DNA of 58,875 nucleotides from Bacillales bacterium UBA6879 (GTDB lineage: Bacteria; Bacillota_I; Bacilli_A; RFN20; CAG-288), in the NCBI GenBank assembly GCA_002449135.1, contig DKCH01000057.1:13954-72828 (forward strand), written 5' to 3'. Of this stretch, positions 1-57,158 are shown piece after piece. Both the position numbers and the translations under genes were made by a program. Position 1 is the first letter of the stretch. Each line of letters starts with the position of its first letter. The notes under the pieces are model-generated. The model was not told where the DNA came from, ran no database searches, and saw only the letters and a program-made list of their open reading frames with translations.

Positions 1-1
1 A

Positions 2-349: not shown

Positions 350-363
350 AACTAAGAATTTAT

Positions 364-3063: not shown

Positions 3064-3122
3064 TTTATCCCTCTTAAATATTTTATACTTTGATACTATT
3101 AAAACGCTAAAGATTATTATAT

Positions 3123-3989: not shown

Positions 3990-3991
3990 AA

Positions 3992-6638: not shown

Positions 6639-6639
6639 T

Positions 6640-7242
6640 TTAATCCCCTTTCATTTCTTTACGATCCTTTAAAGAAAGTTCAATAGTTTGTTGATCAACA
6701 TATTCTAAATCTGCACCAACTGGTAAACCATAAGCTAACTTAGTAATTTTGCAACATCCAGCTAAAGCCTTAAAAATATAATGGGCAGTAATTTCACCTT
6801 CTAAGTTTGAATCTAAAGCTACAATTAACTCTTCAATATGTTCTTTTTTTACCAAATCCACTAATTCAGGAATCCTAATATCTTCTGCTTTAATCCCCTT
6901 TATTGGAGAAATAGATCCACCTAAAACAAAATATTTGCCATTAAATTGATTAGTTTTTTCAAAAGCCAAAACTGCTTTTGTTGATGAAAGAACCATCAAT
7001 TTAGAATTATCTCTTGTCTTACTATCACAAATTGGACAAAATGGCGTATCAATATACATTCCGCATCTAGGACACTTATGAACTTGGGTTTGAACTAAAT
7101 TTAAAGCTTGAATAAATTCATCTAAATCCTCTTTAGAAAAACCTAAAGTGGCATAAGCTAACCTTTCAGCAGTTTTATTACCAACAGAAGGTAACTTTTT
7201 ATAACAAGCGATTAATTTAGTAACTGTATTTATTTGTTCCAT
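6640..7242 (-). CDS. recR: recombination protein RecR
   Basis: N-terminal HhH (KLPSVGNKTAERLAY), C4 zinc finger CPRCGMYIDTPFCPIC, Toprim/Walker B-like region. Confidence 0.95.
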   Translation of the reverse strand: MEQINTVTKLIACYKKLPSVGNKTAERLAYATLGFSKEDLDEFIQALNLVQTQVHKCPRCGMYIDTPFCPICDSKTRDNSKLMVLSSTKAVLAFEKTNQFNGKYFVLGGSISPIKGIKAEDIRIPELVDLVKKEHIEELIVALDSNLEGEITAHYIFKALAGCCKITKLAYGLPVGADLEYVDQQTIELSLKDRKEMKGD

Positions 7243-7243
7243 C

Positions 7244-7546
7244 TTATTTTAACAATGAAGAAATATCAACATTGCTAGCTAAATTATTATTTGAATCATC
7301 ATTAGCTTTTTTAACTTTTTCTAAGCCTTGATTAATAGCGTTTTTCAACATTTCTTCAAGCATTTCCTTATCAGAAAGTACATCTTTATCAATAGTAAGT
7401 TCTTTTAACTTATAATCACCAGTAAAAACTAGCTTAATTGCCCCATTTGCCTCAACAGTAAATTCTTTTTTAGATAAAGCTTCTTTATTTTCATTAAGCT
7501 TATCTTGCATTTTCATTGCCTGCTCCATTAATTTTGAAAAATCCAT
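7244..7546 (-). CDS. YbaB/EbfC family nucleoid-associated protein
   Basis: 100-aa ORF in the conserved dnaX-ybaB-recR position. Coiled N-terminus and a beta-rich middle are typical of the family. Confidence 0.88.
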   Translation of the reverse strand: MDFSKLMEQAMKMQDKLNENKEALSKKEFTVEANGAIKLVFTGDYKLKELTIDKDVLSDKEMLEEMLKNAINQGLEKVKKANDDSNNNLASNVDISSLLK

Positions 7547-7549
7547 ATT

Positions 7550-18900: not shown

Positions 18901-19472
18901 TTAGTAACAGTAGTCCAATCAGTTAAAGTAGTATCATCAAAATCAGGTGAATAGAAAATCTTAGCTACCATAATATTAGAGCTATTAATAGAAACTTCTA
19001 CTTTAATGTGTTTATCATCATTAGAAGCAATTATTTCATTGTTCAATCTAACAACTTCCCACTTATATTTTTGATAATTTTCAACTGATTTAGCAAAACT
19101 GCTTTCCTTAAATTTTTCACCTGTTAATTTAATATAAGGTAGATAATTTTCGTTTGAATCATTTGAATCATAAACAGCATCAATTTTTTCGCCTAATTCA
19201 ATATAAGGTACAATAGTTCCACCAAGATATTTAACCATCATTTGAGTAATAGTTTCATTCCATGGACTATTTTCTTGTGTAATTTCTTGTTCAGTACTAT
19301 CAGATGAAGAAGTTACTTCACTAGTAGAACTAGAAACAGTAGAAGGTTCGCTAGAAGAAACAGCACCAGTAGAATCTGAAGAACTATTTTCATTACTAGT
19401 ATTTTGATTACAGGCTGTTAATAAAGTTGGTATTAATAAAAGTAATGTAAATAATTTTGTCTTTTTTGCCAT
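15912..19472 (-). CDS. giant surface lipoprotein, paralog B (repeated-module family, function unknown)
   Basis: Signal peptide plus lipobox (LLLLIPTLLTA-C), Ser/Thr-rich linker, then repeated modules carrying the W...[LIV]P[YF][FIV]YLG motif. RBS GAGAGG. 18-nt gap to paralog A. Confidence 0.85.
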   Translation of the reverse strand: MAKKTKLFTLLLLIPTLLTACNQNTSNENSSSDSTGAVSSSEPSTVSSSTSEVTSSSDSTEQEITQENSPWNETITQMMVKYLGGTIVPYIELGEKIDAVYDSNDSNENYLPYIKLTGEKFKESSFAKSVENYQKYKWEVVRLNNEIIASNDDKHIKVEVSINSSNIMVAKIFYSPDFDDTTLTDWTTVTKAQLKEYFGTFNLPFIYLGTENYETNYDETSNVLTITGGIYNDSVNEEFTKAFKDGWEVGTDETTTNGVVASKTDAKGNKMVVKLDKYENKARLRVHLEEVFDTTIQDSWSTTVSNKMSLAFNEVLPYFYLGTVYPNIDTTASGAHKLVLKGKIWNDSIVSDAKAKLLADKWQEVSSSATDFTLTKVTSFGNLSVKLERVAKDDSFYPLLTVSSEEAYNETITSTYPEELKTLFKDTYTDDLEAVLPFVYLATKNPTGEVSKNYNNQMVVTGGLFNQKVVENFKTKYSQANWVVTDKTTKMYSSSSEKDGKVYAAAIKKFENATYKVGLFTKGTGADETLYLDITKTDNLSKNTSWSESSKTLVKDTLDLDLNEIPFFDTYSDGDQITLTSRGNLSLNFVATNSVNYRIINAYTALASDPDFKVEMLAGDSYYYNEVYIKNINASKKLSDGRTVVVSITNMPYGRERYYMYGTIKIDETYDLANAPKAWPKSVSEKIKSKFNGLELPYFYLGTAYPVVTEDSSKTDELNIIGGIVGETYFTDVKKQAEDNGFTITSSNSWSVEATKTMPNKDVVELEFSTINYSNSSKPELTIKFTEGFKPDTFTSYPADIDKELKETLKIDDFPLIYLNSDNPSMTVSKSIVNSRKISLLGGNFRSDVMDYLANELKAINNNEWNVNYIVSGSYTKEYEIQAYKIFADSTSIRFRIYQTEDDKIQLDIYYDPIVSTVSSTATSWSELDKFLPEGKKTLEYMKSNFFNETITPLLFLDSRTNKSKFEIKKNQSYSDTIRAYLTNSDAYYSNYQMNLVYNSLKQQGYDVTYRPFGYKNYYGYDYLPEVFATKAMDTNSTFKFTISANTYGTNENLGFEAEIFDMPSYTYFTKNSWSTSEQGLFKQVLGDKVTIPFVNLGDDNLDISVSSSNDDITITADNYKKDIFSDISSIYKTNGWDTFETIDDDGEKVLLANIKIDNRVYNLKVTYSNSDSYASTKLEISYIDL

Positions 19473-19490
19473 AATATATAACCTCTCTTA

Positions 19491-22400
19491 CTATAAATTA
19501 ACTAAAGAAATCTTCACTGTAGTTTTCATACTAGTAGCAGTGTTCTCATAAGTAATAGTAACTAAATAAGTTTTTCCATTAACTGTCTTACTTATTAATA
19601 AAGAATGAATAAGATTACCATTTCTATCTTTTTCATAATTTTCAAAAGTATCCCAGGAATCAGCTTCAAAAGCTTTTGAAGTATCAGCAAAAATACTTTC
19701 TTTATAATTATAGAAAACTAAAGAAACATTTTTATCTGCAACATCAACTTTAGGATTAGCATCACCAAAATTAACATAAGGAAGTTTAAAGTCACTACCA
19801 AAAGCCTTAGTTAAAGCATCTAAAGTAGCTTGGTTATAATTAGTTAAAGTATTAGAATCATAACTTAATGTACGCATAATAGAAACGCTAAAACCATTTT
19901 TGTTATCTTCGCTATTTGCTAAAGCATTAACACTGATTTTTGTAGTACCTTTGCTATCGGTTTTACTAGCTAATAAACTTGAAATAGGCTCACAACTACT
20001 ATCAAATGCAGAATAAGAAACTTCATATCCTTGTTTTTCAAGAAGTTCTCTAGTTTTTAAAACATCAGCATTAGTAAAGTAAGCAGTACTATCTTTAATA
20101 GTAAATACTTTATTTCCACTACTAGAAGAAGAAGTTTCAATATTAAATTTAGTATTAGTCTTATCAGTAGCAAGGAATGAATCTATACTAAAATTATTGC
20201 CAAAATATTGTGAAATTTTACTAGATAAATCACTTTCTAAAGTATCCCAATTTGTTGCACTACTTTGAGTAGTTTGAAGATATTTATCATGAATAATATC
20301 TAATTGCATTTTTGAATCATCATTTTCATAGATTTTAAATTTAATAGATGAATTATCATCTAAAACTTTAGATCCAACTAAATAATAAGCTTTATACCAA
20401 TAACCAACTCCAACTACTTTAGCATTATAAGAATTACCATTTTCCTTAAAAACACTTAAAGCATAATTAAGTAAATCATCAGAATAACTATCACCAACTA
20501 TACTTAAAGAATCATCAGTAGTAGTAAATGTTGGAGTTTGAGTACCTAAATAAACATTTGGGAAACTGCTATCACCAACCTTAGTAAGTGCAGTTTTTAA
20601 ATCCGCACTATAAGAATAATCTTTTGGAGCCAAAGCCTTTTGATAAGAAATTTCAACATATGGCTTATCATTTTCAGTACTAAAGCTAAGATAAATAGTA
20701 TCCCCACTTTCTAAAACAGTATAGCCTACTAAGCCATAATATGAACTATTTACTTCATCAATAGTAAAACCATTTTTATTCAATTGTTCCCTAATATCAG
20801 TATAAAAGCTATCAGAATATGCATTACCAATAATTTTGAACTCATCATCATCAATAACAACAGGATTAGAAGTACCTAAATAGAAATAAGGTAATTCATA
20901 ATTATTAAATTTTTTCTTAACAGCATCACTAACTTCTTTAGGCCAAGCACTAGGAGCAGTAGCTAAATTATAATCTTCAAGTACGTTTATAACACCTGAC
21001 ATAGTATAACGATAATAAGAACTGCTACTTACGCTTACATTAATTTGTAAAGTACGGCCATCATCAAGCTTTTTATTACCAACTATGCTATTAATAAATA
21101 CTTCTTCATAATAATAGCTTCCACTAAAGCCTAAACTAACATCAAAACCATTAGTTTTCAAAACATTATATAAGTTAATAATTAAATAATTAAGATAATT
21201 AGTAGATACAAAAGAAATATCTACTTGTCCATCTTCAAAAGTTATAGGCTCACCAGAGCTCATAGTCTCAATAACAGGAATCTCAGAAGAATCAACCTTT
21301 AAATATTCTTTAAAAATACTTTTAGCAGAATCTGACCATGGAGTGTTTTTATCAACATTATCAGTTCTAGTAATATCTAAATAAGTTATTTTAGAGCTTT
21401 CATCGCCTTTAACAAATAAGCCAACTTTATAAGTGCCTTTATCAAATTTCTTAATAGCGGCACAAAGTACTACACCTGTTTCATAATCCAGGTCATCATC
21501 ACCATAACGAGAACTTACTTGCTTATCAACTATTACCCAGTCTTTAAATTTTTCTTTAAAGTTAGTTAAAATTCTAGCATCATAAAGACCACCAGTCAAA
21601 GTAATATGGTTAGAATATTTACTATCCTTTTCAACCATAGGTGATTTAGCTCCCAAATATAAATAAGGAATAAATTGATTCATTTCTTCTTTAAAAGTAG
21701 ATTTGAATGTATTAAGTACCTCACTAGGGTAACTAGTAGAAACAACATCATTATAAGCTTCATTTCTACTAATAGTTAAAACAGGATGATACAAATCATC
21801 ATCGGTATTTTCAACTCTTTCAATAGTTAAAATAAAAACATCACCATCTTTAGAATAGTTAAAAACTACTTTAGTATCAGTTTGACTTACTATACTCCAG
21901 CCAGTTAATTTAGCTTTAGCATCACTTATAATGCTGTCATCCCAATATTTTCCATTTAAAGTAATAGTTTTAGGATCAGTTTTACTAGTATCAATTAAAG
22001 GATAAGTAGTTCCTATATAAAAATAAGGAATTTTAATACTGCCTAAAGAAATACTCATTTGGTTAACAACTGCTGTTGACCAACTATCTTGTAAAGAAGA
22101 ATCAAAAACTTCATCAAATTTAGCAGTTAATCTAGCTCTATTATTATATTTATCTAAAGTAACAGTCATCTTATTACCTTTACTATCAACTTTAGTAGAT
22201 ACAATCGAATTATCTTCCTCACCTAATTTAGTTTCCCATCCAGCAGTTGAACTATAAACTTTACTGAACTCTTCATTAACTAAATCATTATAAATACCAC
22301 CAATTACAGTAAAAGTATCATCTTGGTAGCTTGTTTTATAAGTGTCATTACCTAAATAAACAAAAGGTAAACCAAAATTTCCAAAATATTCTTTTAATTG

Positions 22401-22994
22401 AGTCTTAGTAACAGCAGTCCAATCAGTTAATGTAGATGGATCAAAATTAGGCTGATAAAAGATTTTAGCAATCATTAAACCTGACTCATTAGTAGAAACT
22501 TTTAATGATAAATTTTTACTAGCTTTAGAAGCATATAAATTACCAGAATTATCAGTAACCACTTCCCATTTATATTCTTTGTAAGTAGTAATAGTTTTAG
22601 TAACCTTACTTTCTAAAAATTTTTCACCAGTTAAAAGAACATAAGGAAGATAATTTTCATCCTTATCATCTTCAACATATTTACCTTCAATAGAAGCTAT
22701 TTGACCTAATTCAATAAATGGAACAATACTACCTCCTAAATGTTCCATCATTAATTTAGTAATCTCTTCACTCCATGGTGAATTAGCTTCTGTAATTTCT
22801 TTTTCATCTTCACTACTACTAGAAGAACTAGTACTTGTAGAGCTACTTAATTCTGAATTAGAAGATGAATTAAATGAACTAGAATTTGAAAATGTAGAAT
22901 CAGTACTAATTGTGCCACTTGTACTGTCATTACAAGCAACTAACAAGCTTGGTAATAACAAAAGTAATGTAAAAAACTTTGTTTTTTTCCTCAT
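19491..22994 (-). CDS. giant surface lipoprotein, paralog A (repeated-module family, function unknown)
   Basis: Signal peptide plus lipobox (LLLLPSLLVA-C), poly-Ser linker (aa ~21-62), then nine modules of ~110-135 aa. Roughly half of the aligned N-terminal residues are identical to paralog B by eye. Confidence 0.85.
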   Translation of the reverse strand: MRKKTKFFTLLLLLPSLLVACNDSTSGTISTDSTFSNSSSFNSSSNSELSSSTSTSSSSSSEDEKEITEANSPWSEEITKLMMEHLGGSIVPFIELGQIASIEGKYVEDDKDENYLPYVLLTGEKFLESKVTKTITTYKEYKWEVVTDNSGNLYASKASKNLSLKVSTNESGLMIAKIFYQPNFDPSTLTDWTAVTKTQLKEYFGNFGLPFVYLGNDTYKTSYQDDTFTVIGGIYNDLVNEEFSKVYSSTAGWETKLGEEDNSIVSTKVDSKGNKMTVTLDKYNNRARLTAKFDEVFDSSLQDSWSTAVVNQMSISLGSIKIPYFYIGTTYPLIDTSKTDPKTITLNGKYWDDSIISDAKAKLTGWSIVSQTDTKVVFNYSKDGDVFILTIERVENTDDDLYHPVLTISRNEAYNDVVSTSYPSEVLNTFKSTFKEEMNQFIPYLYLGAKSPMVEKDSKYSNHITLTGGLYDARILTNFKEKFKDWVIVDKQVSSRYGDDDLDYETGVVLCAAIKKFDKGTYKVGLFVKGDESSKITYLDITRTDNVDKNTPWSDSAKSIFKEYLKVDSSEIPVIETMSSGEPITFEDGQVDISFVSTNYLNYLIINLYNVLKTNGFDVSLGFSGSYYYEEVFINSIVGNKKLDDGRTLQINVSVSSSSYYRYTMSGVINVLEDYNLATAPSAWPKEVSDAVKKKFNNYELPYFYLGTSNPVVIDDDEFKIIGNAYSDSFYTDIREQLNKNGFTIDEVNSSYYGLVGYTVLESGDTIYLSFSTENDKPYVEISYQKALAPKDYSYSADLKTALTKVGDSSFPNVYLGTQTPTFTTTDDSLSIVGDSYSDDLLNYALSVFKENGNSYNAKVVGVGYWYKAYYLVGSKVLDDNSSIKFKIYENDDSKMQLDIIHDKYLQTTQSSATNWDTLESDLSSKISQYFGNNFSIDSFLATDKTNTKFNIETSSSSSGNKVFTIKDSTAYFTNADVLKTRELLEKQGYEVSYSAFDSSCEPISSLLASKTDSKGTTKISVNALANSEDNKNGFSVSIMRTLSYDSNTLTNYNQATLDALTKAFGSDFKLPYVNFGDANPKVDVADKNVSLVFYNYKESIFADTSKAFEADSWDTFENYEKDRNGNLIHSLLISKTVNGKTYLVTITYENTATSMKTTVKISLVNL

Positions 22995-40688: not shown

Positions 40689-40764
40689 TGGTGGATCAGA
40701 CAGGACTCGAACCTGTAACGACCCGCTTATGAGACGGGGACTCTAACCATTGAGCTACTGATCC
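40689..40764 (-). tRNA. tRNA with CAU anticodon (Met or lysidine-modified Ile2; loop CUCAUAA resembles Bacillus tRNA-Ile2)
   Basis: 76-nt cloverleaf read by hand: GGATCAG/TA/GCTC-AATGGTTA-GAGT/C/CCCGT-CTCATAA-GCGGG/TCGTT/ACAGG-TTCGAGT-CCTGT/CTGATCC/A/CCA. CCA is encoded. Confidence 0.85.
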
Positions 40765-40768
40765 GAGA

Positions 40769-40844
40769 TGGTAGCAGCGGGGGGAGTCGAACCCTCGACA
40801 TATCGGGTATGAGCCGAGTGCTCTACCAGCTGAGCTACGCTGCC
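40769..40844 (-). tRNA. tRNA-Met (CAU), elongator-like
   Basis: 76 nt: GGCAGCG/TA/GCTC-AGCTGGTA-GAGC/A/CTCGG-CTCATAC-CCGAT/ATGTC/GAGGG-TTCGACT-CCCCC/CGCTGCT/A/CCA. It closely resembles B. subtilis elongator tRNA-Met. There is no C1:A72 mismatch or GGG:CCC anticodon stem, so it is not an initiator. Confidence 0.85.
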
Positions 40845-40889
40845 ATAATGAATCAATCTGATCACGCGATTGGCTTTTTATATAAAAAA

Positions 40890-40965
40890 TGGTGGACCTG
40901 ACGGGGATCGAACTCGCTACCTCCTCCATGCCATGGAGGCGCTCTCCCAGATGAGCTACAGGCCC
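40890..40965 (-). tRNA. tRNA-Ala (GGC)
   Basis: 76 nt: GGGCCTG/TA/GCTC-ATCTGGGA-GAGC/G/CCTCC-ATGGCAT-GGAGG/AGGTA/GCGAG-TTCGATC-CCCGT/CAGGTCC/A/CCA. The G3:U70 alanine identity pair is present and CCA is encoded. Confidence 0.88.
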
Positions 40966-47426: not shown

Positions 47427-49910
47427 TTAATTTCTACCTTTTAAATCATTAATATTAGGACTTTGATTATACCATTTAGCTAAACTTGGATTTAAAGTTA
47501 AATAAGACCAATCATTAAATCCTAAAAGACCAAAAGCAGCTCTTCCCATTCCAATAAGCATAGAATCAATTTTAGCCTGAGTATTATTTATATCAGTATA
47601 TGGTGAACTTTTATCTAAAGTATAAGCGTAAGGGTTTAAAGAAAATTCCTCATTAAAATATGAATTATCATAGAAAATATCAGTAGTATTTAATCCACCA
47701 CCCATTTTAAAAACAGGATTATTAATGTATTTTTTATCTCCATCAGTTTTTAAAATCTTTTCATAATCTTGCTTAATAATTTCTTTTAAAGGAAGATAGT
47801 CGTCAGTAGTAACATTGACAGATCCAACACCACCATGTAAATCAATAAATGCCTCTATATCTTGGAAAATTAAAGAAGAATAATCTAAGGAATCAAAATC
47901 TTTCCAATTATAGAATCTTGTATCACCAGTAATTGTAATTTTACTTGGATAAGAACTTAATGCAAGTTTAGAAGGATAAAGATTCTCAGAATAAATTGCT
48001 AAAATTACCATCGCAATATCCATATTATTTTCTAAATAACTTCCTTGATAATAAGTGTCAGCAGATATTGAAGCAATGCCGCTATTATAAAAGAAAGTAT
48101 TATTAATATTTACACTGCCTTTATAGTTCTTACTACCATCTGAATTATAAAAACCACTATCGTTAAATAAAGCGCTTTGTAAAGCTTTCTGATTATTTAA
48201 GTAATCTTGCTTAGAAAATGGGGTAGGATTAAGTCCAATAAATTGGTATCCTGCTGTATTAGAAAAGGTCGCATAAGTTAAAATACTTTCTGCTTTATAG
48301 CTTGTTAACTCATCAAAATCTTTAACGCGAGCAATATAATCATTAACTGTTGATTCTTTAGTTTCATTTCCTTGTTTATAAGTAATTTTTTTATTTAAAT
48401 CAACTCTATTATATTCATTAGTCCCAGTTCTAACTAAAAACTCATAGGCATTAGAAAGTAAACAATTATCTATATTAAAATTCATAGAAGAATATGAGCG
48501 AATAACATTTCTACCATTAGAAACTAAAGAATTCTTTAATGCAATATTATCTCCATCAACTTCCATTATAGTACCTGTGTATTTTAAGTTTTCCATATTG
48601 TTACCAAAATCACAGCCCTTAAAATTTACACCTTCTAATAAGATATTATTTCCCTTAATATAAAAAGCAGAATTATCTTGTCCATACAAACCAAAAACAG
48701 GCAAATTAACATTTGGATTTAAATCAGTTTCAATTGTTTTAGGAGCTCCTATAGCCATAAACATATTAGGACCTCTAAATAAATCATCATTAGTTAAAAC
48801 AGGCACAATATTTTTTTCACCATTAACAGTTACTTCTTTTTCACCTGATGGATAGACTAAATCATGAGTATTAATAACAAATCCATTACCATAAAAATCT
48901 TTACTGATTTTAATACCAGAATAAATATTAGTTTTAACAGGATAATCTGGATAAGTTTTGTTATATAAATCTAAATATTCTATATTAAAAGTTGAATCAT
49001 GAATACAAATTTCATTTTGGAAATTAAACTTCTTAGTTTCAAAATCAAAATTACCAAAAAGTTCAGTATTCTTAAGACTTTTCTTAACATATTTATCATC
49101 TTTAATATCATAAAGATTATTTAATGACTCTAAATTATTTCTTAAAATAGCAACTTCACCTTCACTAGATAAGTTAGTAGCTAACAATAAATCATTATAA
49201 TTATAAATATTTACACCATCTATAATATTAAATTCATATTCACCTTTAGTAGATTCACTAGTAGAATAAGGATAAGAATACCTAATATTAGCCTTACCAA
49301 AACCAGTATAATTTAATACATTATTAGCTAAATCAATACTTAAATTATCAGATAAATTAAATTCAATAGTATCTTTAGTAATTTTATCATTACCATAAAT
49401 TTCTAAGGAAAAAGGAAAATTTGATTTGACCTTTTTATCATCCTTGAAATCATAAAAACCTACATACTTATTATCAGTAATACCACTTTGAGAAAATTCT
49501 TTAATAGGATTAAAAATAATCGCGCCATCATTTCCATAAACAGTTGCTAAAAAGCTTTTAGAAACATTACCCTTTTCATTTGAACAAGTAACCTTAGTTT
49601 TTCCTTCAGATAATAATTCTAAATAATACGAATCACCAATTTTGCTAATTGTAGCAATTTCTGGATTAGAGCTAAACCAAACTAATGAATTATTACTTCC
49701 TAATGGATACTTTTCATTATATGAATAACTAGATTCTAATTTAATTTTCCCAGCTTTTAAAGAAAAAGCTTCATTATCTTTATAATTCCAATTAATACTA
49801 GAAATATCCTGTTCATTATTTTTAATAATAACAGTAGCAGTTACAAAAGCAAAAATAGAAATAACAAATGGAATAGTTAATAAAAATGGGATAATACTCT
49901 TTTTCATCAT
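47427..49910 (-). CDS. large secreted or anchored protein: Ig-like (Big_2-type) domain plus probable beta-helix region
   Basis: 827 aa. The N-terminal hydrophobic segment ends in ...SIFAFVTAT. The segment LVWFSSNPEIATISKIGDSYYLELLSEGKTKVTCSN...ATVY has the Big_2 pattern. The middle is rich in short N/G-containing strands (YGNGFVINTHDL, GVNFKGCDFGNN, VSNGRNVIRS). 4-nt overlap with the permease gene. Confidence 0.6.
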   Translation of the reverse strand: MMKKSIIPFLLTIPFVISIFAFVTATVIIKNNEQDISSINWNYKDNEAFSLKAGKIKLESSYSYNEKYPLGSNNSLVWFSSNPEIATISKIGDSYYLELLSEGKTKVTCSNEKGNVSKSFLATVYGNDGAIIFNPIKEFSQSGITDNKYVGFYDFKDDKKVKSNFPFSLEIYGNDKITKDTIEFNLSDNLSIDLANNVLNYTGFGKANIRYSYPYSTSESTKGEYEFNIIDGVNIYNYNDLLLATNLSSEGEVAILRNNLESLNNLYDIKDDKYVKKSLKNTELFGNFDFETKKFNFQNEICIHDSTFNIEYLDLYNKTYPDYPVKTNIYSGIKISKDFYGNGFVINTHDLVYPSGEKEVTVNGEKNIVPVLTNDDLFRGPNMFMAIGAPKTIETDLNPNVNLPVFGLYGQDNSAFYIKGNNILLEGVNFKGCDFGNNMENLKYTGTIMEVDGDNIALKNSLVSNGRNVIRSYSSMNFNIDNCLLSNAYEFLVRTGTNEYNRVDLNKKITYKQGNETKESTVNDYIARVKDFDELTSYKAESILTYATFSNTAGYQFIGLNPTPFSKQDYLNNQKALQSALFNDSGFYNSDGSKNYKGSVNINNTFFYNSGIASISADTYYQGSYLENNMDIAMVILAIYSENLYPSKLALSSYPSKITITGDTRFYNWKDFDSLDYSSLIFQDIEAFIDLHGGVGSVNVTTDDYLPLKEIIKQDYEKILKTDGDKKYINNPVFKMGGGLNTTDIFYDNSYFNEEFSLNPYAYTLDKSSPYTDINNTQAKIDSMLIGMGRAAFGLLGFNDWSYLTLNPSLAKWYNQSPNINDLKGRN

Positions 49911-51511
49911 TGACCTCCAAACTCAATAAAAGCTTTAGTTAAACGGCTTTTTATCTTAATTAAATACATTCCTAATAAAGCAATTTCTAAAAATAAAACA
50001 ACTAAATAAAATACAATATCAGTTGGAATAGATAATTTAGGAATCAAAGTAAACAAAACACCAATAAAAACAAAAATTAAAGGCAAAATTAAACTAGTAA
50101 AAGTACCAACAAAATCACTAACTTTAGACTTAACATCCGAAATAGTTGAAGTAATAAATAAAACACTTAAACCTATCAAACCTATAAAAAGTAAAAATAA
50201 CATTGCATAATAAGAAATCAAATTAGTTACAAGCAAAACTAAAACAGTAATAAAATAAGACAAAATAGAAAAACAATAAGGTACTAACATCTTAAAACAT
50301 ATTTGCTTAAGTGGACTTATTGGTAACGACTTAATAAGCTTTAAAGTATTTATTTCCTTTTTTAAAGAAGCTGAAGAATTTGAGTTAAAAATAAGTATAA
50401 AAATTAAAATCAAAAAAGTATCTAAAGCAGAAATAAAATTAGGATACAAACTTTTAATATAAGTTAAATTACCAGTGGAAAAAATTAAATGAATAGATGA
50501 AATAACAAGATAAATTAAGAATGGTTGAATACAAACTAAGAAAACGAAAGAAAAGACACCTTCATCATTTTTGAAAGTTAAACTTAATTCCTTCTTAACT
50601 AAAGCAATAGACTGAGAATTCACTCTAGATTTCCTTTTAAATAAAACAATTTCTTGTTTACTATTTTCACCACTATATAAATAATGTTTATAAAAATAAT
50701 AAAAGCATAATATAGAAATTGAAAACAAAGAGAAAATAAAAATTAGTAGCATTACCAAATTAAAAATAACATTTTCCCTAACCATTAAATCCATCATAAA
50801 ATTAATTGGAAATAAAGAACTAGAAAGATTATTAAGATACTCAATATTATTAATAGTAAATAAATTATCTAAATTAGTAGAGCGAACAACTGAAATAAAA
50901 AAATCTAAAATAACAGAATAAAAATAAGTAAGTAAAAAACCTAAACCTAAAGTCAAAACAACTAAAACAACAGGTAATCTTTTTAAATTCTCATAAATAT
51001 ATTTATAAGGCATAACTAAAAGAAGACTTATAAAAGAAATAATTAAAGAAGAAAAAATAATATTAACAAAAGCTAGAAAATAATATGATACCTGATAATT
51101 ATTAAAGTAAGCTTGTAAAAACAAAAAAGGATAAATAGCTACTATTGAAATTAAAAATATTCTTAAAGTATTAAATAAAACTTTTGAAAAAATAATAGAA
51201 GAAACAGAAATAGGTTTACTTCCCAATATTATTCTTTCTTTTTTATTACCGAAAAATATCTTGTAATACTTAACTATTGAATATAAAATCAAAAAAATGC
51301 AAAAACAAAAATAATAAATGCTAATTAATGAAGAAAATAAACCAACAATATTTCCTATTTTATTATGAAGTTGAATAAACAAATAAGTTTCTAAAAATAT
51401 AATAAAAGCTAGAGAAACTGAAAATGATAAAATCTTTAACAAACGCTTAGATAATTTAAGATTAATAAGATTAAAACTATCAAACTCTCTAACAAATAAA
51501 TCACTAAGCAT
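49907..51511 (-). CDS. ABC exporter permease (large polytopic protein)
   Basis: 534 aa and almost entirely hydrophobic (more than 10 TM segments). 8-nt overlap with the upstream ABC ATPase gene. Confidence 0.65.
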   Translation of the reverse strand: MLSDLFVREFDSFNLINLKLSKRLLKILSFSVSLAFIIFLETYLFIQLHNKIGNIVGLFSSLISIYYFCFCIFLILYSIVKYYKIFFGNKKERIILGSKPISVSSIIFSKVLFNTLRIFLISIVAIYPFLFLQAYFNNYQVSYYFLAFVNIIFSSLIISFISLLLVMPYKYIYENLKRLPVVLVVLTLGLGFLLTYFYSVILDFFISVVRSTNLDNLFTINNIEYLNNLSSSLFPINFMMDLMVRENVIFNLVMLLIFIFSLFSISILCFYYFYKHYLYSGENSKQEIVLFKRKSRVNSQSIALVKKELSLTFKNDEGVFSFVFLVCIQPFLIYLVISSIHLIFSTGNLTYIKSLYPNFISALDTFLILIFILIFNSNSSASLKKEINTLKLIKSLPISPLKQICFKMLVPYCFSILSYFITVLVLLVTNLISYYAMLFLLFIGLIGLSVLFITSTISDVKSKVSDFVGTFTSLILPLIFVFIGVLFTLIPKLSIPTDIVFYLVVLFLEIALLGMYLIKIKSRLTKAFIEFGGQ

Positions 51512-52244
51512 TTTTAGCCCCCACTACTTCAAAGAATTTATCCTCAAGAGTATTTCTAAGATTTGGATCATCTTCTAAATTTAAAATACATTTTATAACA
51601 CCATCATTAATAATTGCGACTCTACTAGCTAGTTTAGAAACTAAATCAATATTATGAGAAGCAATAAAAATACAATTACCTTGGTTTACATAATCTTTCA
51701 TCAATTTTTTAAAAAATATTAAAGTTAAAGCATCAAGTCCTAAAGTTGGTTCATCCATTATCCAAACTTTAGGATTATGAATCAAAGAAGCCATTATACA
51801 TAGCTTTTGTTTCATACCTAATGAATATTCTTTTATTACTCTATTAAGATCCATATAAGGTAATCCTAAATTCTTAGATAAGCTTTCAAGTCTTTTTTCA
51901 AAATCATCTTCAGAAACCTTATAAACAGAAGCAATAAATTCCAAATAAGATAAACCTGACATATCTTCATAAACAGTTGGTTCACTATTTAAATATGAAA
52001 ATGAACTTTTTGCTTCTATTGGTTGTTCTTTTATATCAAAACCATTGATTATTACTTTTCCAGTATTAAAAGATTTTACACCAGTTATACAATCTATTAA
52101 AGTCGATTTTCCAGCACCATTTTTACCTAAATAAGCAAATATTTCACCGCTTTTAACAATTAAAGAAACTCCTTTAATTACTTCTATTTTCCCATCGTAA
52201 GACTTATGTAAATCCTTTATCTCAATTAAATTATCTATTTCCAT
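51504..52244 (-). CDS. ABC transporter ATP-binding protein (BcrA/ABC-2-like)
   Basis: Walker A GKNGAGKST, signature YSLGMKQKL, Walker B VWIMDEPTLGLD, H-loop ASHN. Confidence 0.92.
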   Translation of the reverse strand: MEIDNLIEIKDLHKSYDGKIEVIKGVSLIVKSGEIFAYLGKNGAGKSTLIDCITGVKSFNTGKVIINGFDIKEQPIEAKSSFSYLNSEPTVYEDMSGLSYLEFIASVYKVSEDDFEKRLESLSKNLGLPYMDLNRVIKEYSLGMKQKLCIMASLIHNPKVWIMDEPTLGLDALTLIFFKKLMKDYVNQGNCIFIASHNIDLVSKLASRVAIINDGVIKCILNLEDDPNLRNTLEDKFFEVVGAKNA

Positions 52245-52256
52245 ATTAAGTTCCTC

Positions 52257-54500
52257 TTATTTCATTTTCCAAGTTTTAGAATTTGAATCAAAAATGAATG
52301 AATAATTATTTACATGGTTAGCACCATTATTAGTATCATCTCTTACCCCTTCACCTCTAAATTTAAGTAAAGAATATGTTCCATCTTCTTGCTTTGGAAT
52401 AAATGCCCCTTGGAAATAAATATAGCTTTTACCATTTATTGAATTAAATTCGTGAGTATTATTGTTATAAGTTCCTTCAATAAAACTTCCACTTAAAGAA
52501 TCAGCCTTATTTAAATCATTAGCTTTATAAATATTATCTATATCTTCATTATCGTAAATAAATGCATATTGTTTACCATCCTTACTAGAAATTACACCAG
52601 TAATTGAATCAAAAGTCATTTCTCTATTATCAAAAGCATCCTGATTATTAGAATCTTTAGTTTTTATTATAACTTTTCCATTAGAAATTAAAGGTAATGC
52701 ATTAAACTCAGATATATTTAATCTGCGATTTTTACCATTTCCAAAAATTATATTTGCCACATTACTATCCAATGTTCTATTTGGCCCACTTAAAGCAGTT
52801 GAAGAGAACAAATCTAAATGGGATTGATTTACTAGATTTTTTAATACTTTGATATTTTTAAAATTAATATTACCAGATAATCTATAATTATGATTAAAAT
52901 TATTGTTATTTGAATTTACAAAAAATAATTCACCTTCAAAATCACAAAATGCCTCTCTTTTATCAATACTATTCCAATATTTATCACTTTGACTTTCTAA
53001 ATACATTCTGTTTTCAGCATTATTTGATTTTGTTATGTCCCAAATATTACAATACTTTAATATTTGAGTGTGGTTATAAGCCCTATTTAAAAACATTAAT
53101 CCACCAACAGATTGATATTTTTTTTCATCTATAAGATGGTTGTTAAACATAATCTTTACATTCATGCTTGGCATTGTTAAGATATCACTTATTCCTAAAT
53201 TTATCTTGCTATATTTATCAACAAATAAATAAGTATTATTCATAAAAACTAATAACTGATTTAAATTAAAGCTAGATTTATATAAATAAAATGAATAAAA
53301 AGGTGGTATATAAAAAAGATATTTTTTAGAGGTAAAATTCATCTCACCCCTTAAATTAAATTTTATGTTCCAATTTTCAAAATAAATTTTAGCATTAAAA
53401 GCTTTATATGTGACTTTTTGATTTAGCAAATAATTACCAATAAAATTTTCTTGAAGACTAGAATCAACAGAAAAATTTCTTTCAATATATGAATCTTCTT
53501 CATTTAATTTTGTTTTAATTAAAGTATTATCTAAATTGGTTGAAATTAAATTAATATCGCTAACAACTTGTCCAGATCCACCTAAAGAAATTCTTAGATG
53601 CCCTATAAGACTAGATTGATTTTTTAAAACAATATTAGCTTGTAAATAAGGCATAAAATACAAATTAAATAATGGAGTATTATTAAAATATGCTTCTGGC
53701 ATACTATCCTCATGATACATATCTAAAATAGCAAAAGGAGTTTTTAGACTAGAATTATCAGTTAAAATAATTTTCCCTCCACCAATAGAATCAGTAATTA
53801 AACCATAACTATCTAAAACTGAGTTGTTTGTCAAAATCAAATCATGTCCTTTTAAATCTAAAGTAGCATAGTTAGTAACAATATAACCTTGAGCATGAAC
53901 TTGTCCAAAATTTTTAGAGTTACTACCCCATGATTGAGAACCTGTTATACCACCAATACTTAAGTTGCCATTTAAAATAACATCATTTTCCAATTGAATT
54001 TTTGCTTCTTCTTTATTATTTGTATCTAATTTTATTGTCCAATCAGAAACTGAAAAACCATTACCTGAACTAGAATTATTTAAAACTTTTTTATTATCAT
54101 TATCACTTACTTTTTTCTCTAAGTTTCCTGAATAACCTAAACTAGTTAAATTACTTACATCAGTTAAATTAGTTGGCACTTCACTACTTCCCACAAAAGT
54201 CAAATTAGAATTAACCTTAATATCATCTTTCCCTAAAATAAGATTTTCACTTTTCCATTCTATATAATTACTACCATCAATATATTTAGGAGCATTTCTT
54301 AAACTTAAATCACTTCCTTTTTCAACATATTCAGTTTTTAATATTTGATTATTATATTTGTATTCAACTTTTAACTTATTAGTATTATTATCGTGAATAT
54401 CTAATTTATTATCATTATTAACAACAACAAAAGAAGAATAAGAAATAGATATCGTAGAAAATAAAACAATTAAGGCTTTAAAAATTTTAAACTTTTTCAT
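52257..54500 (-). CDS. large secreted protein with a SipW-type signal (function unknown)
   Basis: 747 aa. N-terminus MKKFKIFKALIVLFSTISISYSSFVVV. The early segment KVEYKYNNQILKTEYVEKGSDLSLRNAPKYIDGSNYIEWKSEN resembles a Listeria-Bacteroides (InlB B-repeat-like) module. The rest is N/S/G-rich and beta-like. RBS GAGGT. Confidence 0.6.
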   Translation of the reverse strand: MKKFKIFKALIVLFSTISISYSSFVVVNNDNKLDIHDNNTNKLKVEYKYNNQILKTEYVEKGSDLSLRNAPKYIDGSNYIEWKSENLILGKDDIKVNSNLTFVGSSEVPTNLTDVSNLTSLGYSGNLEKKVSDNDNKKVLNNSSSGNGFSVSDWTIKLDTNNKEEAKIQLENDVILNGNLSIGGITGSQSWGSNSKNFGQVHAQGYIVTNYATLDLKGHDLILTNNSVLDSYGLITDSIGGGKIILTDNSSLKTPFAILDMYHEDSMPEAYFNNTPLFNLYFMPYLQANIVLKNQSSLIGHLRISLGGSGQVVSDINLISTNLDNTLIKTKLNEEDSYIERNFSVDSSLQENFIGNYLLNQKVTYKAFNAKIYFENWNIKFNLRGEMNFTSKKYLFYIPPFYSFYLYKSSFNLNQLLVFMNNTYLFVDKYSKINLGISDILTMPSMNVKIMFNNHLIDEKKYQSVGGLMFLNRAYNHTQILKYCNIWDITKSNNAENRMYLESQSDKYWNSIDKREAFCDFEGELFFVNSNNNNFNHNYRLSGNINFKNIKVLKNLVNQSHLDLFSSTALSGPNRTLDSNVANIIFGNGKNRRLNISEFNALPLISNGKVIIKTKDSNNQDAFDNREMTFDSITGVISSKDGKQYAFIYDNEDIDNIYKANDLNKADSLSGSFIEGTYNNNTHEFNSINGKSYIYFQGAFIPKQEDGTYSLLKFRGEGVRDDTNNGANHVNNYSFIFDSNSKTWKMK

Positions 54501-55111
54501 ATTTCTACCTCACTACTAACAAAATCAAAAGCTAAAGTAAATTTCCCAAGTAATAAAGAATCAATTTTAAGAAAATCAATATTAAAATTAATAGTTTCAA
54601 TATTATTTTCAACTAAATTTAAAAAGTAAGATGAATCAAATAATTCAGCTGATTTTATAGGTAAACTTAATGTAACTGAATTATTAGTATATTTTTTAAT
54701 ATCATAAAATATTATAGATTTACCATTAATATTAGTTAAACTAAAACATTTAGCATCATATAAGCTACTATCTTTAAAAATATCGTTATCTTTAGTAATA
54801 GTAATTTTAAAATATTTAAATTGATCAGCTTCTTGCTTTTGATTTTCTTCACTATTAAATTTTGTTTTGTCAAATTCAAAAGTAACATTCAGCTCTTTAT
54901 TAATAGGATTATTACCATCTTTTTCAATTCCACTATACTCTTTAAGAGTTAAAAAGGAATAACCATTATTATTTGAAATAATATTTACATCTTCAATATT
55001 TGGATTTATTTCTGTGCCTTGATAATCCATTACAAAAGCAGCAAAAGTTACACTGCAACTTAATATAGTAATAAAGGATAAAGAAAATAAAAGTATTCTA
55101 CTCCTTTTCAT
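54497..55111 (-). CDS. small secreted protein with a SipW-type signal (accessory subunit candidate)
   Basis: 204 aa. N-terminus MKRSRILLFSLSFITILSCSVTFAAFVMD. RBS AAGGAG. 14-nt overlap upstream and 4-nt overlap downstream. Confidence 0.65.
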   Translation of the reverse strand: MKRSRILLFSLSFITILSCSVTFAAFVMDYQGTEINPNIEDVNIISNNNGYSFLTLKEYSGIEKDGNNPINKELNVTFEFDKTKFNSEENQKQEADQFKYFKITITKDNDIFKDSSLYDAKCFSLTNINGKSIIFYDIKKYTNNSVTLSLPIKSAELFDSSYFLNLVENNIETINFNIDFLKIDSLLLGKFTLAFDFVSSEVEI

Positions 55112-55619
55112 TTTTTACTCCTTTTTTACATATTTTAACTATTAAATAAGTTACTATCCCTATTAAAAACAAAATAACTGTAGGGATTAAAGCCAACAAA
55201 ATAACTTCACCAACAAATTTTAATGTAATTAAATAAGCATCATTCTTTAATGGTAAATATAAAATTGAACCTATTCCAAAAGAGAAGAACAAACAATAAG
55301 CAATTAAACACAAAATAGTAGTTATCCAAAAAGGACTTAAAATGTTAGTTCCTTCTTTTTTCGCTTCTATTTTTATAAAAATAAAACCAGCTATAAAAAT
55401 CGCTAAATATATTAAAATCAAACTTAAGAAAGCATAACTAGCACCATTTAAAGTAAATAATTCAAGACCTAAACTTCTAACAATACTAACAAAAAAGTGA
55501 TTTTCAAGTTGATCATAATATGAAGCATTTAAGCCAAAAGAAACTAAAATTGAAAAGATAACAAAAACTAAACTAATTGAAATTAATAAAAGATTTTTTC
55601 TATTTAAAACATCTTTCAT
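55098..55619 (-). CDS. small polytopic membrane protein (function unknown)
   Basis: 173 aa with 4-5 TM segments. ATGA overlap with the signal peptidase gene. Confidence 0.7.
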   Translation of the reverse strand: MKDVLNRKNLLLISISLVFVIFSILVSFGLNASYYDQLENHFFVSIVRSLGLELFTLNGASYAFLSLILIYLAIFIAGFIFIKIEAKKEGTNILSPFWITTILCLIAYCLFFSFGIGSILYLPLKNDAYLITLKFVGEVILLALIPTVILFLIGIVTYLIVKICKKGVKNEKE

Positions 55620-56350
55620 TTAGTCACCTCCGTCTTTTTTAATCTTGCTCTTTTCTCTTTTTCAATTAAGCTTTCTTCCACTGAGTAAGCTATATAAGAG
55701 GAAAAAATTAGACTAACCGCAAGGATTCCATAATTAGATCTTAAGTAAAAAACAACAAATCCTAGATAAGGTATTCTAAAATTAGAATATTTTCCATTAA
55801 TCATTTCTAAATTAACTTTTATAGGATCAACTTGGTCATTAGCATCACCTTTTAAAATCAAATAATCATCATGTATTTCTACTATTCTATGAATAATATT
55901 TATTTCATTAGATTTATAAGAAACAATATCATAAAGTTTAAGATCTTCTAAGGAATTAACCTTTGTTAAAAACACAACATCATATTTATAAAGTCTATTA
56001 TTTAAGTTATTTTCGTCTATATATTTATTTTGCTTATTAACACTAGCCATAGAATTAGAAGCAATAGTTGTAAATTGGAATGGCGCTTTATAAGAAGAAG
56101 TAATTCTACTTAATAAAGAGAATCCAAACAAAACAATAACAATTCCAACTACAACATAATTAATTATGGATAAGACAATATCAAAAATAGACTTTTTTTC
56201 TTCTTTTTTAGATTCTAAAGAAATCTCATTATCCAATTCGCCTTTTTTTATTAAACTTTTTTCTTTAATAAAAGAATAAATCAAATAAGTAATAAAACAA
56301 ATAAAGAGAAAAACAAAGATTCCAAATAAAATCCAAAAAATACTATCCAT
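55616..56350 (-). CDS. signal peptidase I, ER/archaeal (S26B, SipW-like) type
   Basis: 244 aa. Catalytic blocks in SipW order: Ser box TTIASNSMAS, His box INIIHRIVEI, Asp box LILKGDANDQVDP. Hydrophobic anchors at both the N- and C-termini, as in SipW. Confidence 0.75.
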   Translation of the reverse strand: MDSIFWILFGIFVFLFICFITYLIYSFIKEKSLIKKGELDNEISLESKKEEKKSIFDIVLSIINYVVVGIVIVLFGFSLLSRITSSYKAPFQFTTIASNSMASVNKQNKYIDENNLNNRLYKYDVVFLTKVNSLEDLKLYDIVSYKSNEINIIHRIVEIHDDYLILKGDANDQVDPIKVNLEMINGKYSNFRIPYLGFVVFYLRSNYGILAVSLIFSSYIAYSVEESLIEKEKRARLKKTEVTK

Positions 56351-56352
56351 TA

Positions 56353-57018
56353 CTATGCATTAGTAGCATTAACAGATAATGTGATATTAGTATTAGCTGC
56401 ACTATCTTTTAAACTATTTAAACTAGTTTCCATATCTTTATTAGAAACACTAGCACCACCTTTTCCTTCTTCGTAATATTCAGAAGGATTAATTCCACCA
56501 AAAGCTGTTCCCCAACTAAAAGCAACCTCTTTAGTAATAGTTGTAACAGCATTACTACCTTCACCGGTAACAGACCAAGTAGCTTCTTTAGCTACAGAAA
56601 CATTTTTAAAATCTAAAAACTTTAAAGTAAATAAATCATCTTTTCCATTAGCATCTTTTTTACTAGCTTTAGCAGAAATATCAATTCTATTAAATAAAGA
56701 AGTGTCACCTGTAACAGAAATATTTAATGTTAAGTTTAAATTTTCACTACTAGACTTATCTTGATATTGTAAGCGTCCTTCTTTATCAGTTGCTTTTGGC
56801 TCTAAAGAAAGTTTGTTATTATTAGCAATACTAACAGTTACATCTAAGGCTTTGTTAGAAACGCCTTCGGCAGAAACTGCAGGATTAACTGTACCAGGGT
56901 TATTACCACCACCAGTAATAACAAAAGCAGCATAAGTGGTAGTTATTACAGCACATAGGCCTAAAACTAAACCACTTGTTAAAAAAAACTTTTTATGATT
57001 TCTTTTTGTAAACGACAT
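56353..57018 (-). CDS. TasA/camelysin-like secreted protein with a SipW-cognate signal (fibre subunit candidate)
   Basis: 221 aa. N-terminus MSFTKRNHKKFFLTSGLVLGLCAVITTTYAAFVITGGG parallels B. subtilis TasA ...LALVGGGTWAAFND. The mature part is G/S/T/N/K-rich and beta-like. Strong RBS AGGAGG. Confidence 0.6.
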   Translation of the reverse strand: MSFTKRNHKKFFLTSGLVLGLCAVITTTYAAFVITGGGNNPGTVNPAVSAEGVSNKALDVTVSIANNNKLSLEPKATDKEGRLQYQDKSSSENLNLTLNISVTGDTSLFNRIDISAKASKKDANGKDDLFTLKFLDFKNVSVAKEATWSVTGEGSNAVTTITKEVAFSWGTAFGGINPSEYYEEGKGGASVSNKDMETSLNSLKDSAANTNITLSVNATNA

Positions 57019-57057
57019 TTTGTCCTCCTATATCATTATTTACATTTATAATGTATC

Positions 57058-57074
57058 AAAAAAAAAAAAAAAAA
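57058..57074. repeat. homopolymeric A17 (T17 on the minus strand) tract in a divergent promoter region
   Basis: Counted directly: A at 57058-57074. It lies 40 nt upstream of the ATG (57018) of the first operon gene and 84 nt upstream of the kdgT-like ATG. Confidence 0.95.
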
Positions 57075-57120
57075 CACTTTATTTCAAGTAAATAAAATTA
57101 TAAAACAATAAAATAGTCCA

Positions 57121-57150
57121 TTTAAAAGGACAAATACAATGATGTATAAT
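57121..57150 (+). promoter_or_regulatory. candidate promoter giving a leaderless or near-leaderless kdgT-like mRNA
   Basis: TTTAAA-18 nt-TATAAT (57145-57150). The ATG is at 57159 and there is no Shine-Dalgarno between them. Confidence 0.4.
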
Positions 57151-57158
57151 AAAAAAGT

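Follow-up and report, generated by a model that had tools for sequence, protein, structure and literature searches.

The window analysed here, a 58,875-nt stretch of contig DKCH01000057.1 of Bacillales bacterium UBA6879, carries on its minus strand (47427-57018) eight closely packed or overlapping open reading frames (ORFs), in which a predicted endoplasmic reticulum (ER)/archaeal-type signal peptidase is encoded together with three proteins that share an N-terminal signal motif, an ATP-binding cassette (ABC) transporter and a large anchored surface protein. We propose, with a probability of about 0.6, that this operon is a self-contained module for making cell-surface proteins, in which the peptidase would mature the three motif-bearing proteins encoded beside it. 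The genes, numbered W1 to W8 in the direction of transcription, are the following (aa, amino acids; ↓, predicted cleavage site; TM, transmembrane; Ig, immunoglobulin):

W1, 56353-57018, minus strand: 221 aa, predicted secreted beta-sandwich protein, signal ends TTTYA↓AFVITGGG
W2, 55616-56350, minus strand: 244 aa, predicted ER/archaeal-type (S26B) signal peptidase I
W3, 55098-55619, minus strand: 173 aa, four-TM membrane protein
W4, 54497-55111, minus strand: 204 aa, predicted secreted protein, signal ends SVTFA↓AFVMD
W5, 52257-54500, minus strand: 747 aa, predicted large secreted protein, signal ends ISYS↓SFVVV
W6, 51504-52244, minus strand: 246 aa, ABC ATP-binding protein of the DrrA/GldA/ABC-2 group
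W7, 49907-51511, minus strand: 534 aa, permease with ~11-12 TM segments, predicted partner of W6
W8, 47427-49910, minus strand: 827 aa, predicted signal-anchored protein with two Ig-like domains and a beta-helix (826 aa in the JGI annotation, which takes the second Met as start)

These coordinates and spacings agree exactly with the eight ORFs and the overlaps listed in a first-pass annotation, made by a model from the letters of this DNA, and the compact, operon-like arrangement of overlapping or adjacent genes with ribosome-binding sites fits the single unit that it had put forward. From W1 to W8 the junctions measure +2, -4, -14, -4, +12, -8 and -4 nt, and a Shine-Dalgarno-like sequence precedes seven of the eight starts, the exception being the peptidase gene W2, which begins 2 nt past the W1 stop. 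Three of the junctions read ATGA, which shows TGA to act as a stop codon here; translation hence follows the standard genetic code and not that of Mycoplasma.

A signal motif shared by three predicted secreted proteins

The N-termini of W1, W4 and W5 are built alike, i.e., a basic n-region and a hydrophobic core followed by T-Y-A-A-F-V, T-F-A-A-F-V and S-Y-S-S-F-V, respectively. Written as [GTSCA][FYW][AS][AGST][FWY][VILA], the motif occurs only three times in the window ORFs of 100 aa or more, which total 18,999 residues, each time at residues 20-28 of one of these proteins (221, 204 and 747 aa). Seven related loci (described below) give the same picture: wherever the motif appears, it falls in the signal region at the N-terminus of a protein encoded in the cluster or close to it, the one occurrence past residue 50 being due to an ORF called from an upstream start. 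Conservation of the motif in orthologues, which the first-pass annotation had anticipated, extends to distant lineages, in forms such as G-F-A-A-W-V, G-F-S-A-W-V, A-Y-A-G-Y-V, S-Y-A-S-F-V and C-F-A-A-Y-L. It had named as carriers the gene in front of W2 and two or three genes behind it; these are W1, W4 and W5, and the 827-aa W8 has no motif, its N-terminus forming a conserved long TM helix. The W1 and W4 families can be aligned with each other (hhalign) only over their first ~40 residues, and conservation along the W1 family peaks in the signal (0.75 vs 0.2-0.5 elsewhere).

In TasA, the cleavage site T-W-A↓A-F (P2 Trp, P2' Phe) is refractory to LepB and is cleaved by the ER-type peptidase SipW (PMC10269814). 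The core of the W1, W4 and W5 signals has the same spacing, with small residues at P1 and P1' and aromatic ones at P2 and P2'. However, the hidden Markov model (HMM) of SipW-cognate signals, TIGR04088 (cutoff 19 bits), matches none of the N-termini of W1, W4, W5, W8 and their relatives at E<=10, whereas TasA, used as a positive control, scores 38-42 bits; membership of the signals in TIGR04088 is thus ruled out. Of the earlier proposal that these are signals of the TasA/TapA/camelysin kind, the TasA-like cleavage core holds and the assignment to the known signal family does not. Judging from their sequences, the W1, W4 and W5 signals form a class distinct from TIGR04088 that is likely to work as the SipW-cognate one does. 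Two small proteins of a metagenome-assembled genome (MAG), UMGS236 (locus L013, 13589-14281 and 21483-22133), are encoded beyond the downstream end of the core cluster and carry the motif as IAFSSWV and IGYASFL, which suggests that they may be additional peptidase substrates.

A divergent ER/archaeal-type signal peptidase

Five aligned cluster peptidases (six for the Ser block, S98-N-S100-M101) have in common invariant S98-x-S100-M101, H154-R155, G168-D169-x-N171 and D175 (W2 numbering), and a profile made from the cluster peptidases retrieves human SEC11A (7p2p, E=9e-8) and SEC11C (E about 1e-7). In a MAFFT alignment, S98-N-S100-M101 of W2 pairs with S-G-S56-M of SEC11A, and both HMMER and MAFFT pair I-I-H154-R155-I-V with I-V-H96-R-V-L, i.e., a histidine and not the lysine of LepB-type S26A enzymes, and G168-D169-A-N171-x-x-x-D175 with G-D116-N-N-A-V-D-D122 (residues 60-162 of the SEC11A sequence used match the PDB chain in the HMMER alignment). 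The first-pass reading of W2 as an ER/archaeal-type peptidase with Ser, His and Asp blocks is borne out by these alignments, in which Ser100, His154, Asp169 and Asp175 all find their counterparts in SEC11A. Its double membrane anchor is not, as hydropathy gives three membrane segments: an extra N-terminal one, followed by a conserved charged loop and then by an anchor, the catalytic domain and a second anchor.

The curated models recognise W2 partially, over residues 124-235 (NCBIfam). The ER/archaeal-type model TIGR02228, of the kind that the first-pass annotation had suggested for a search, does match, but at 47.2 bits falls under its cutoff of 51.85, and the SipW model NF046067 gives 41.8 bits against a cutoff of 190; a Pfam scan finds no S24/S26 match. 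The Ser block escapes the HMMs owing to a ~15-residue insertion that immediately follows the Ser motif. W2 can be aligned to SEC11A/C and to archaeal signal peptidase I (S26B, TIGR02228) in its C-terminal TM segment and in the Ser, His and Asp of the catalytic set, yet it scores below the TIGR02228 cutoff and its HMM and PDB alignments span only the region past the Ser motif. It is predicted to be a catalytically intact but divergent S26B enzyme and not a SipW equivalog.

The cluster in other gut Bacilli and Clostridia

A search with W2 returned a single non-self relative, and a scan of genome contigs with the peptidase alone returned none; the W8 alignment succeeded as query, so that the related loci are those of the W2 relative together with those found by a GTDB scan with the W8 alignment. 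The same cluster is present in about ten other loci from gut MAGs of Bacilli and Clostridia, with GC contents of 24-47%. The carriers include a rabbit Bacilli bin, an "uncultured Clostridia" bin (47% GC), the "uncultured Mollicutes" UMGS236 (25% GC), Candidatus Caccosoma faecigallinarum, Candidatus Scatoplasma merdavium and an "uncultured Bacillales" bin, and further contexts are a Clostridiales MAG, a Candidatus Borkfalkiaceae MAG and several Logan/ENA contigs. The cluster is hence not a property of a mollicute-like lineage, as had been supposed, since it also occurs in Clostridia MAGs of 43-47% GC. W1-like genes adjoin the peptidase gene in the window and in L001/L012, L009, L011, L013, L014, L015, L017 and L018 (GC 25-47%); L016 starts inside the peptidase gene, the upstream neighbour of which is outside the view.

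The common gene order is one to three W1-like genes, the peptidase, a ~600-aa TM-AAA+ protein, a ~430-aa DUF2357 protein, the ABC ATPase, the permease, a W8-like gene and a Flg_new lipoprotein. The ~600-aa protein joins a W3-like N-terminus to a C-terminal AAA_5/McrB-like ATPase (the AAA_5 match being weak), and in its DUF2357 (McrC-N-like) partner a C-terminal Zn ribbon, CPxC…CxxC, is invariant, while no nuclease motif is evident. This AAA+/DUF2357 pair is found in L001 (11010-14118), L011, L013, L014, L015, L016, L017 and L018; a McrBC-like pair inside a secretion/surface cluster is unusual. W3 itself, with four TM segments by hydropathy, is homologous to the N-terminal membrane domain (residues 5-152, E=6e-9) of the 608-aa TM-AAA+ protein of L001 and also matches its homologues in L011, L012 and L016, and a comparison with the YknW family gives a weak match (E=0.006). 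L016 has the full gene set plus W4-like and W5-like genes, while L009, like the window, is without the AAA, DUF2357 and Flg_new genes. By these comparisons the window cluster looks like a reduced variant of a larger cluster, with W3 as the surviving membrane domain of the TM-AAA+ protein. As the flanking genes differ between loci, the cluster is conserved as a unit.

This distribution also bears on an alternative that we consider unlikely, namely that W2 is the general (perhaps the only) type I signal peptidase of its host and the motif merely the ordinary signal c-region of the lineage. In its favour are the small or atypical sets of signal peptidases common among reduced, Mollicutes-like genomes and the failure of the signals against TIGR04088. 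It fits poorly with the confinement of the motif to the operon proteins, at the related loci as in the window, with the pairing of W1-like genes and peptidase being kept in the Clostridia MAGs of 43-47% GC and larger gene sets, and with the use of different signals by other exported proteins of the window, e.g., two lipoproteins of ~1170 aa.

L017 has a type IV pilus/pseudopilus set (N_methyl pilins, prepilin peptidase A24, T2SSF and T2SSE) at 1-6694, ~3 kb upstream of the cluster and separated from it by infC-rpmI-rplT, a proximity that may be coincidental. For Clostridium perfringens, a preprint links type IV pilus genes to biofilm matrix protein secretion (PMC11580942).

The predicted secreted proteins

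The W1 family is large: 77 clusters were found by a word-indexed search, and an exhaustive search returned 2038 representatives at E<=1e-3 (1622 at E<=1e-10). Its members have a conserved signal, a conserved C-terminal block (F-x-W-G-x-x-F-x-x-x-N-P) with the last strand, and a hypervariable, indel-rich region in between. Conserved ends around a variable middle are also typical of polymerising surface subunits such as flagellins and pilins. The AlphaFold2 (AF2) model of W1, inspected for the jelly roll and donor-strand N-terminus of TasA and camelysin, is at modest confidence a beta-sandwich with two C-terminal helices (predicted local distance difference test, pLDDT, 61), for which Foldseek found in the PDB only generic Ig-like sandwiches (E>=0.01), with no TasA among the 50 best matches. 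There is no Pfam domain in the W1 family, a scan with Pfam (PF12389 Peptidase_M73 included) of all window proteins and ten W1-family members gave no PF12389 match, and the W1 profile run against PDB sequences did not retrieve TasA at E<=10. The small secreted proteins thus have no detectable homology to TasA or camelysin, with which the first-pass annotation had compared them, and for W1 and W4 the results of Pfam, PDB profile, hhalign and Foldseek speak against it. A W1 paralogue in L009 (2068-2691) has a lipoprotein signal, LTLTSC, in place of the aromatic motif, which puts the W1 domain on the outer side of the membrane and implies that the same domain can be lipid-anchored.

The mature part of W4 is unrelated to W1 and matches no Pfam or NCBIfam family; orthologues are present in L009 (GFAGYIYG) and L016 (SYASFVVD). 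W5 likewise has orthologues in L009 and L016, the latter with the signal TCFAAYLII, and the L009 one is split into a 103-aa ORF with the signal and N-terminus (5216-5527) and a 702-aa ORF (5575-7683), which may reflect a frameshift, a pseudogene or an assembly error. Domain searches with W5 gave no relationship to Pfam, PDB sequences, the Flg_new family, the W8 family or PHROG. Family comparison rules out that W5 is related to W8, and a Flg_new domain in W5 is likewise rejected (no Pfam match; hhalign probability of 1.5% against the Flg_new lipoprotein family of the sister clusters). The Flg_new repeats looked for after the first-pass annotation (Flg_new/TIGR02543) are absent from W1-W8, and the Flg_new gene belongs to related loci only.

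It is quite unlikely, in our view, that the N-termini of W1, W4 and W5 are uncleaved signal anchors, with the motif as an interface or oligomerisation element and W2 processing other proteins or a subset of these. Such a reading draws on the strong conservation of the whole hydrophobic region in the W1 family, beyond the c-region, on the clear signal anchor of W8 and on the lipoprotein paralogue of W1, which is membrane-tethered. Yet the motif core is spaced like the proven TasA site, the motif closes off the hydrophobic core on its C-terminal side, 19-31 residues into the protein, which is where signal peptidase cuts, and a catalytically intact peptidase is always encoded next to it.

Membrane partners and the anchored protein W8

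W6 matches PF00005 at 2.2e-25 and TIGR01188 (drrA) at 1.4e-50, which places the ABC ATPase recognised in the first pass in the DrrA/ABC-2 group, and it is 50-53% identical to the cluster ATPases of other loci. W7 has 11 hydrophobic peaks (~11-12 TM segments) and no match in a Pfam scan or among PDB sequences; its homologues match PF09847 12TM_1, ABC2_membrane_4/5 and ABC_tran_2 weakly, and conserved K-K-E and L-P-x-S-P motifs are seen in the W7 comparison. As in DrrAB/GldA ABC-2 exporters, a separate gene for a DrrA-group ATPase is followed by one for a polytopic permease, but W7 is a single ~12-TM protein with only weak ABC-2/12TM_1 similarity. By analogy, one may conjecture that W6/W7 and W3 serve an EcsAB-like clearance of signal peptides or the export of something other than protein.

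The AF2 model of W8 (pLDDT 88.6; predicted template modelling score, pTM, 0.89) shows a TM helix (residues 6-31), two Ig-like domains of the Big_2 type (~35-235), a right-handed beta-helix and a helical C-terminal region. In Foldseek, the matches concern the Ig-like part only (S-layer Sap/SbsC, LigA, intimin and phage BIG2 proteins), and with the Ig-like domains dominating, the comparison with PDB and viral structures was uninformative as to the function of the beta-helix. PF13229 (Beta_helix) is found in 8 of 34 members of the W8 family, which comprises more than 130 clusters of ~800-aa proteins, all annotated as "hypothetical". On the strength of the model, W8 is predicted to be a signal-anchored surface protein, so that the first-pass view of it as a secreted protein is not supported: it has the modelled TM helix and no motif.

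That the core function is instead export and modification of a glycopolymer or lipid, W6/W7 moving the polymer, the W8 beta-helix (possibly also W5) acting as lyase, epimerase or binder and W1 and W4 being accessory, strikes us as distinctly improbable. Beta-helix folds are typical of polysaccharide-active proteins, PF13229 appears among the W8 relatives and the ATPase is nearest to DrrA/GldA-type ABC-2 systems; but the cluster has no glycosyltransferase, polymerase or flippase gene at any locus, W8 shows no identified catalytic signature and was matched by Foldseek in its Ig-like part alone, and the most conserved linkage is that of the peptidase with the motif-bearing proteins. A mobile or anti-phage defence island, to which the PADLOC PDC-M26A match of the 608-aa protein of L001 (5e-41) and the McrC-like DUF2357 of the partner protein in sister clusters might point, can be dismissed as very improbable, given that the window is without the McrB-like AAA+ and DUF2357 domains, that PADLOC yields only generic P-loop/ATPase matches for W6 and a marginal one for W2 (E=0.005), that the DUF2357 partners keep the Zn ribbon in place of an evident nuclease motif, that no PHROG match was obtained for the six window proteins scanned (all but the peptidase W2 and the ATPase W6), and that the operon has housekeeping flanks (rpsB, tsf and kdgT), no integrase and other genes that encode exported proteins. 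For the window genes themselves, a phage or defence origin is opposed by the lack of any PHROG match (six proteins) or meaningful PADLOC match.

A model for the assembly of surface proteins

We propose that W1, W4 and W5 enter the Sec pathway with signals that end in T-Y-A↓A-F, T-F-A↓A-F and S-Y-S↓S-F. The aromatic P2 and P2' residues would make such a signal a poor substrate for a LepB-type enzyme and a substrate for an ER-type, SipW-like one, as in TasA, and W2, encoded alongside, would be the dedicated processing enzyme of all three. The neo-N-terminal peptides predicted after cleavage are AFVITGGGNNPGTVNPAVSAEGVSNK (W1), AFVMDYQGTEINPNIEDVNIISNNNGYSFLTLK (W4) and SFVVVNNDNK (W5). The released proteins would then assemble on or near the membrane with W8: the variable beta-sandwich protein W1 would supply the main subunit, W4 and W5 would contribute minor or large components, and W8 would serve as an anchor, an adhesin or a glycan-binding part. 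W6/W7 together with W3 would be conserved accessory membrane components, for which an EcsAB-like removal of the unusually hydrophobic signal peptides after cleavage and non-protein export are candidate roles. The cleavage position, the pairing of peptidase and substrates and the assembly into a fibre or coat are what we infer from this arrangement. A polymeric fibre or coat is plausible because of the conserved ends and variable middle of W1, the analogy with tapA-sipW-tasA and the lipoprotein paralogue in L009.

Several results weigh against the proposal. The peptidase scores under the curated cutoffs of both TIGR02228 and NF046067, and the signals of W1, W4 and W5 fail TIGR04088. Neither Pfam nor the PDB profile nor hhalign (probability 0.6%) detects a relationship of W1 to TasA, and the W1 model is only moderately confident, with no TasA-like structure among the Foldseek matches. 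Any role given to the ABC exporter is pure conjecture, and W2 could be a general enzyme, no other signal peptidase I being seen in the 58.9-kb window.

A fuller version, which we regard as possible though on the doubtful side, is that the cluster is the biogenesis machine of an unrecognised surface filament or coat in uncultured gut Bacillota. A hypervariable subunit family (>2,000 clusters at 50% identity) would be matured by its own ER-type signal peptidase. Its assembly would draw on a signal-anchored protein with Ig-like and beta-helix parts, on an ABC-2 transporter and, where the cluster is complete, on a membrane-anchored McrB-like AAA+ motor with its DUF2357 partner. No pilus, S-layer or matrix-fibre pathway described so far is known to combine these parts.

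Comparison with known systems

The nearest parallel is tapA-sipW-tasA of B. subtilis, where likewise the gene of an S26B-type peptidase lies next to or between those of its presumed substrates, with T/S-aromatic-A↓A-aromatic signals, and where one small abundant protein is accompanied by accessory secreted proteins. In contrast, the window signals fail TIGR04088 and the mature proteins are unrelated to TasA and TapA. W2 differs from SipW in its extra N-terminal TM segment, its conserved cytoplasmic loop and the ~15-residue insertion, and it scores far below the SipW model. The window further adds an ABC-2 exporter, a four-TM protein and a ~800-aa anchored Ig/beta-helix protein, and most relatives add the TM-AAA+/DUF2357 pair and the Flg_new lipoprotein as well. 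TIGR04089 (alternate-type signal) and TIGR04090 (BsaA of Clostridium perfringens) embody the same concept, i.e., lineage-specific secreted families tied to an ER-type peptidase, but neither the window proteins nor the W1-family members match them, whereas TasA does so weakly, and the accessory genes are different.

No names or Pfam families were found for members of the W1, W4, W5, W7 and W8 families, and literature searches on SipW with Mollicutes and on TIGR04088 yielded nothing relevant and no description of the cluster. For the combination that the first-pass annotation could not place, no description or name was found in the literature or in family annotation either. The principle of an ER-type peptidase encoded with its cognate substrates is already known from sipW-tasA and the NCBIfam SipW-dependent classes; what is new in the cluster is its class of signals, its cargo families and its accessory machinery.

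The hosts, i.e., RF39-like or "Mollicutes"-labelled Bacilli, Candidatus Scatoplasma, Candidatus Caccosoma and Borkfalkiaceae-type Clostridia, belong to lineages represented almost exclusively by MAGs, from the guts of humans, chickens and rabbits, and their surfaces are uncharacterised. The cluster may encode one of the main surface-exposed, rapidly diversifying protein structures of these bacteria, and its products are candidate antigens or adhesins for studies of host-microbe interaction. Its signals would represent a second class of signal peptides dependent on an ER-type peptidase, different in sequence from that of TIGR04088, which opens the question of the signal features that block LepB-type and yet allow ER-type cleavage. 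It also links an ER-type peptidase to an ABC exporter and, in the relatives, to a membrane AAA+ protein, neither of which is known for sipW-tasA.

Genomic setting and upstream region

The window is also contained in a 258-kb JGI metagenome contig (3300013382, Ga0116618_100004) with 27% GC, and from PolC, DnaX, S2P protease, rpsB and tsf, all encoded in the window, it can be assigned to a low-GC Bacillota chromosome. The operon is flanked by kdgT and rpsB, among housekeeping genes (rpsB, tsf and kdgT), and no integrase or mobile-element genes were seen near it in the window. Its GC content (22-25% over 48001-56000) lies below that of most of the rest of the window (25-32%), which could stem from membrane/surface-protein composition or from a foreign origin.

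Ahead of W1 lies a 140-nt region:

Upstream intergenic region, 57019-57158, minus strand: putative promoter, AGGAGG ribosome-binding site and T17 homopolymer

A promoter-like match, TTTAAA-18-TATAAT, is found at 57126-57097, although promoter-like sites in this AT-rich DNA show no excess (68 found vs 76 expected from shuffles), and a terminator scan gave one terminator-like match, at chance level. The T17 tract of the operon strand (A17 on the plus strand, 57058-57074) lies just upstream of the ribosome-binding site, adjoins a TTGATA hexamer and is the sole A/T homopolymer of at least 12 nt in the whole window. In another assembly of this species (L019, ENA ERZ26858461) the tract is T15 in place of T17, within a region that is otherwise 97% identical. 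The tract could serve slipped-strand phase variation of a surface-protein operon, or it could be an artefact of sequencing or assembly. RNA structure in the 5' leader around T17 is no better than in shuffles (z = -0.36).

Elsewhere on the minus strand, two paralogous genes in tandem (15912-19472 and 19491-22994) encode large, uncharacterised surface lipoproteins (1186 and 1167 aa), which have no Pfam match and are marked by the lipoboxes LLTAC and LLVAC, a Ser/Thr-rich linker and internal repeats (…LPYFYLG…), and a tRNA cluster, Met(CAT)-Met(CAT)-Ala(GGC), is located at 40689-40965, also on the minus strand.

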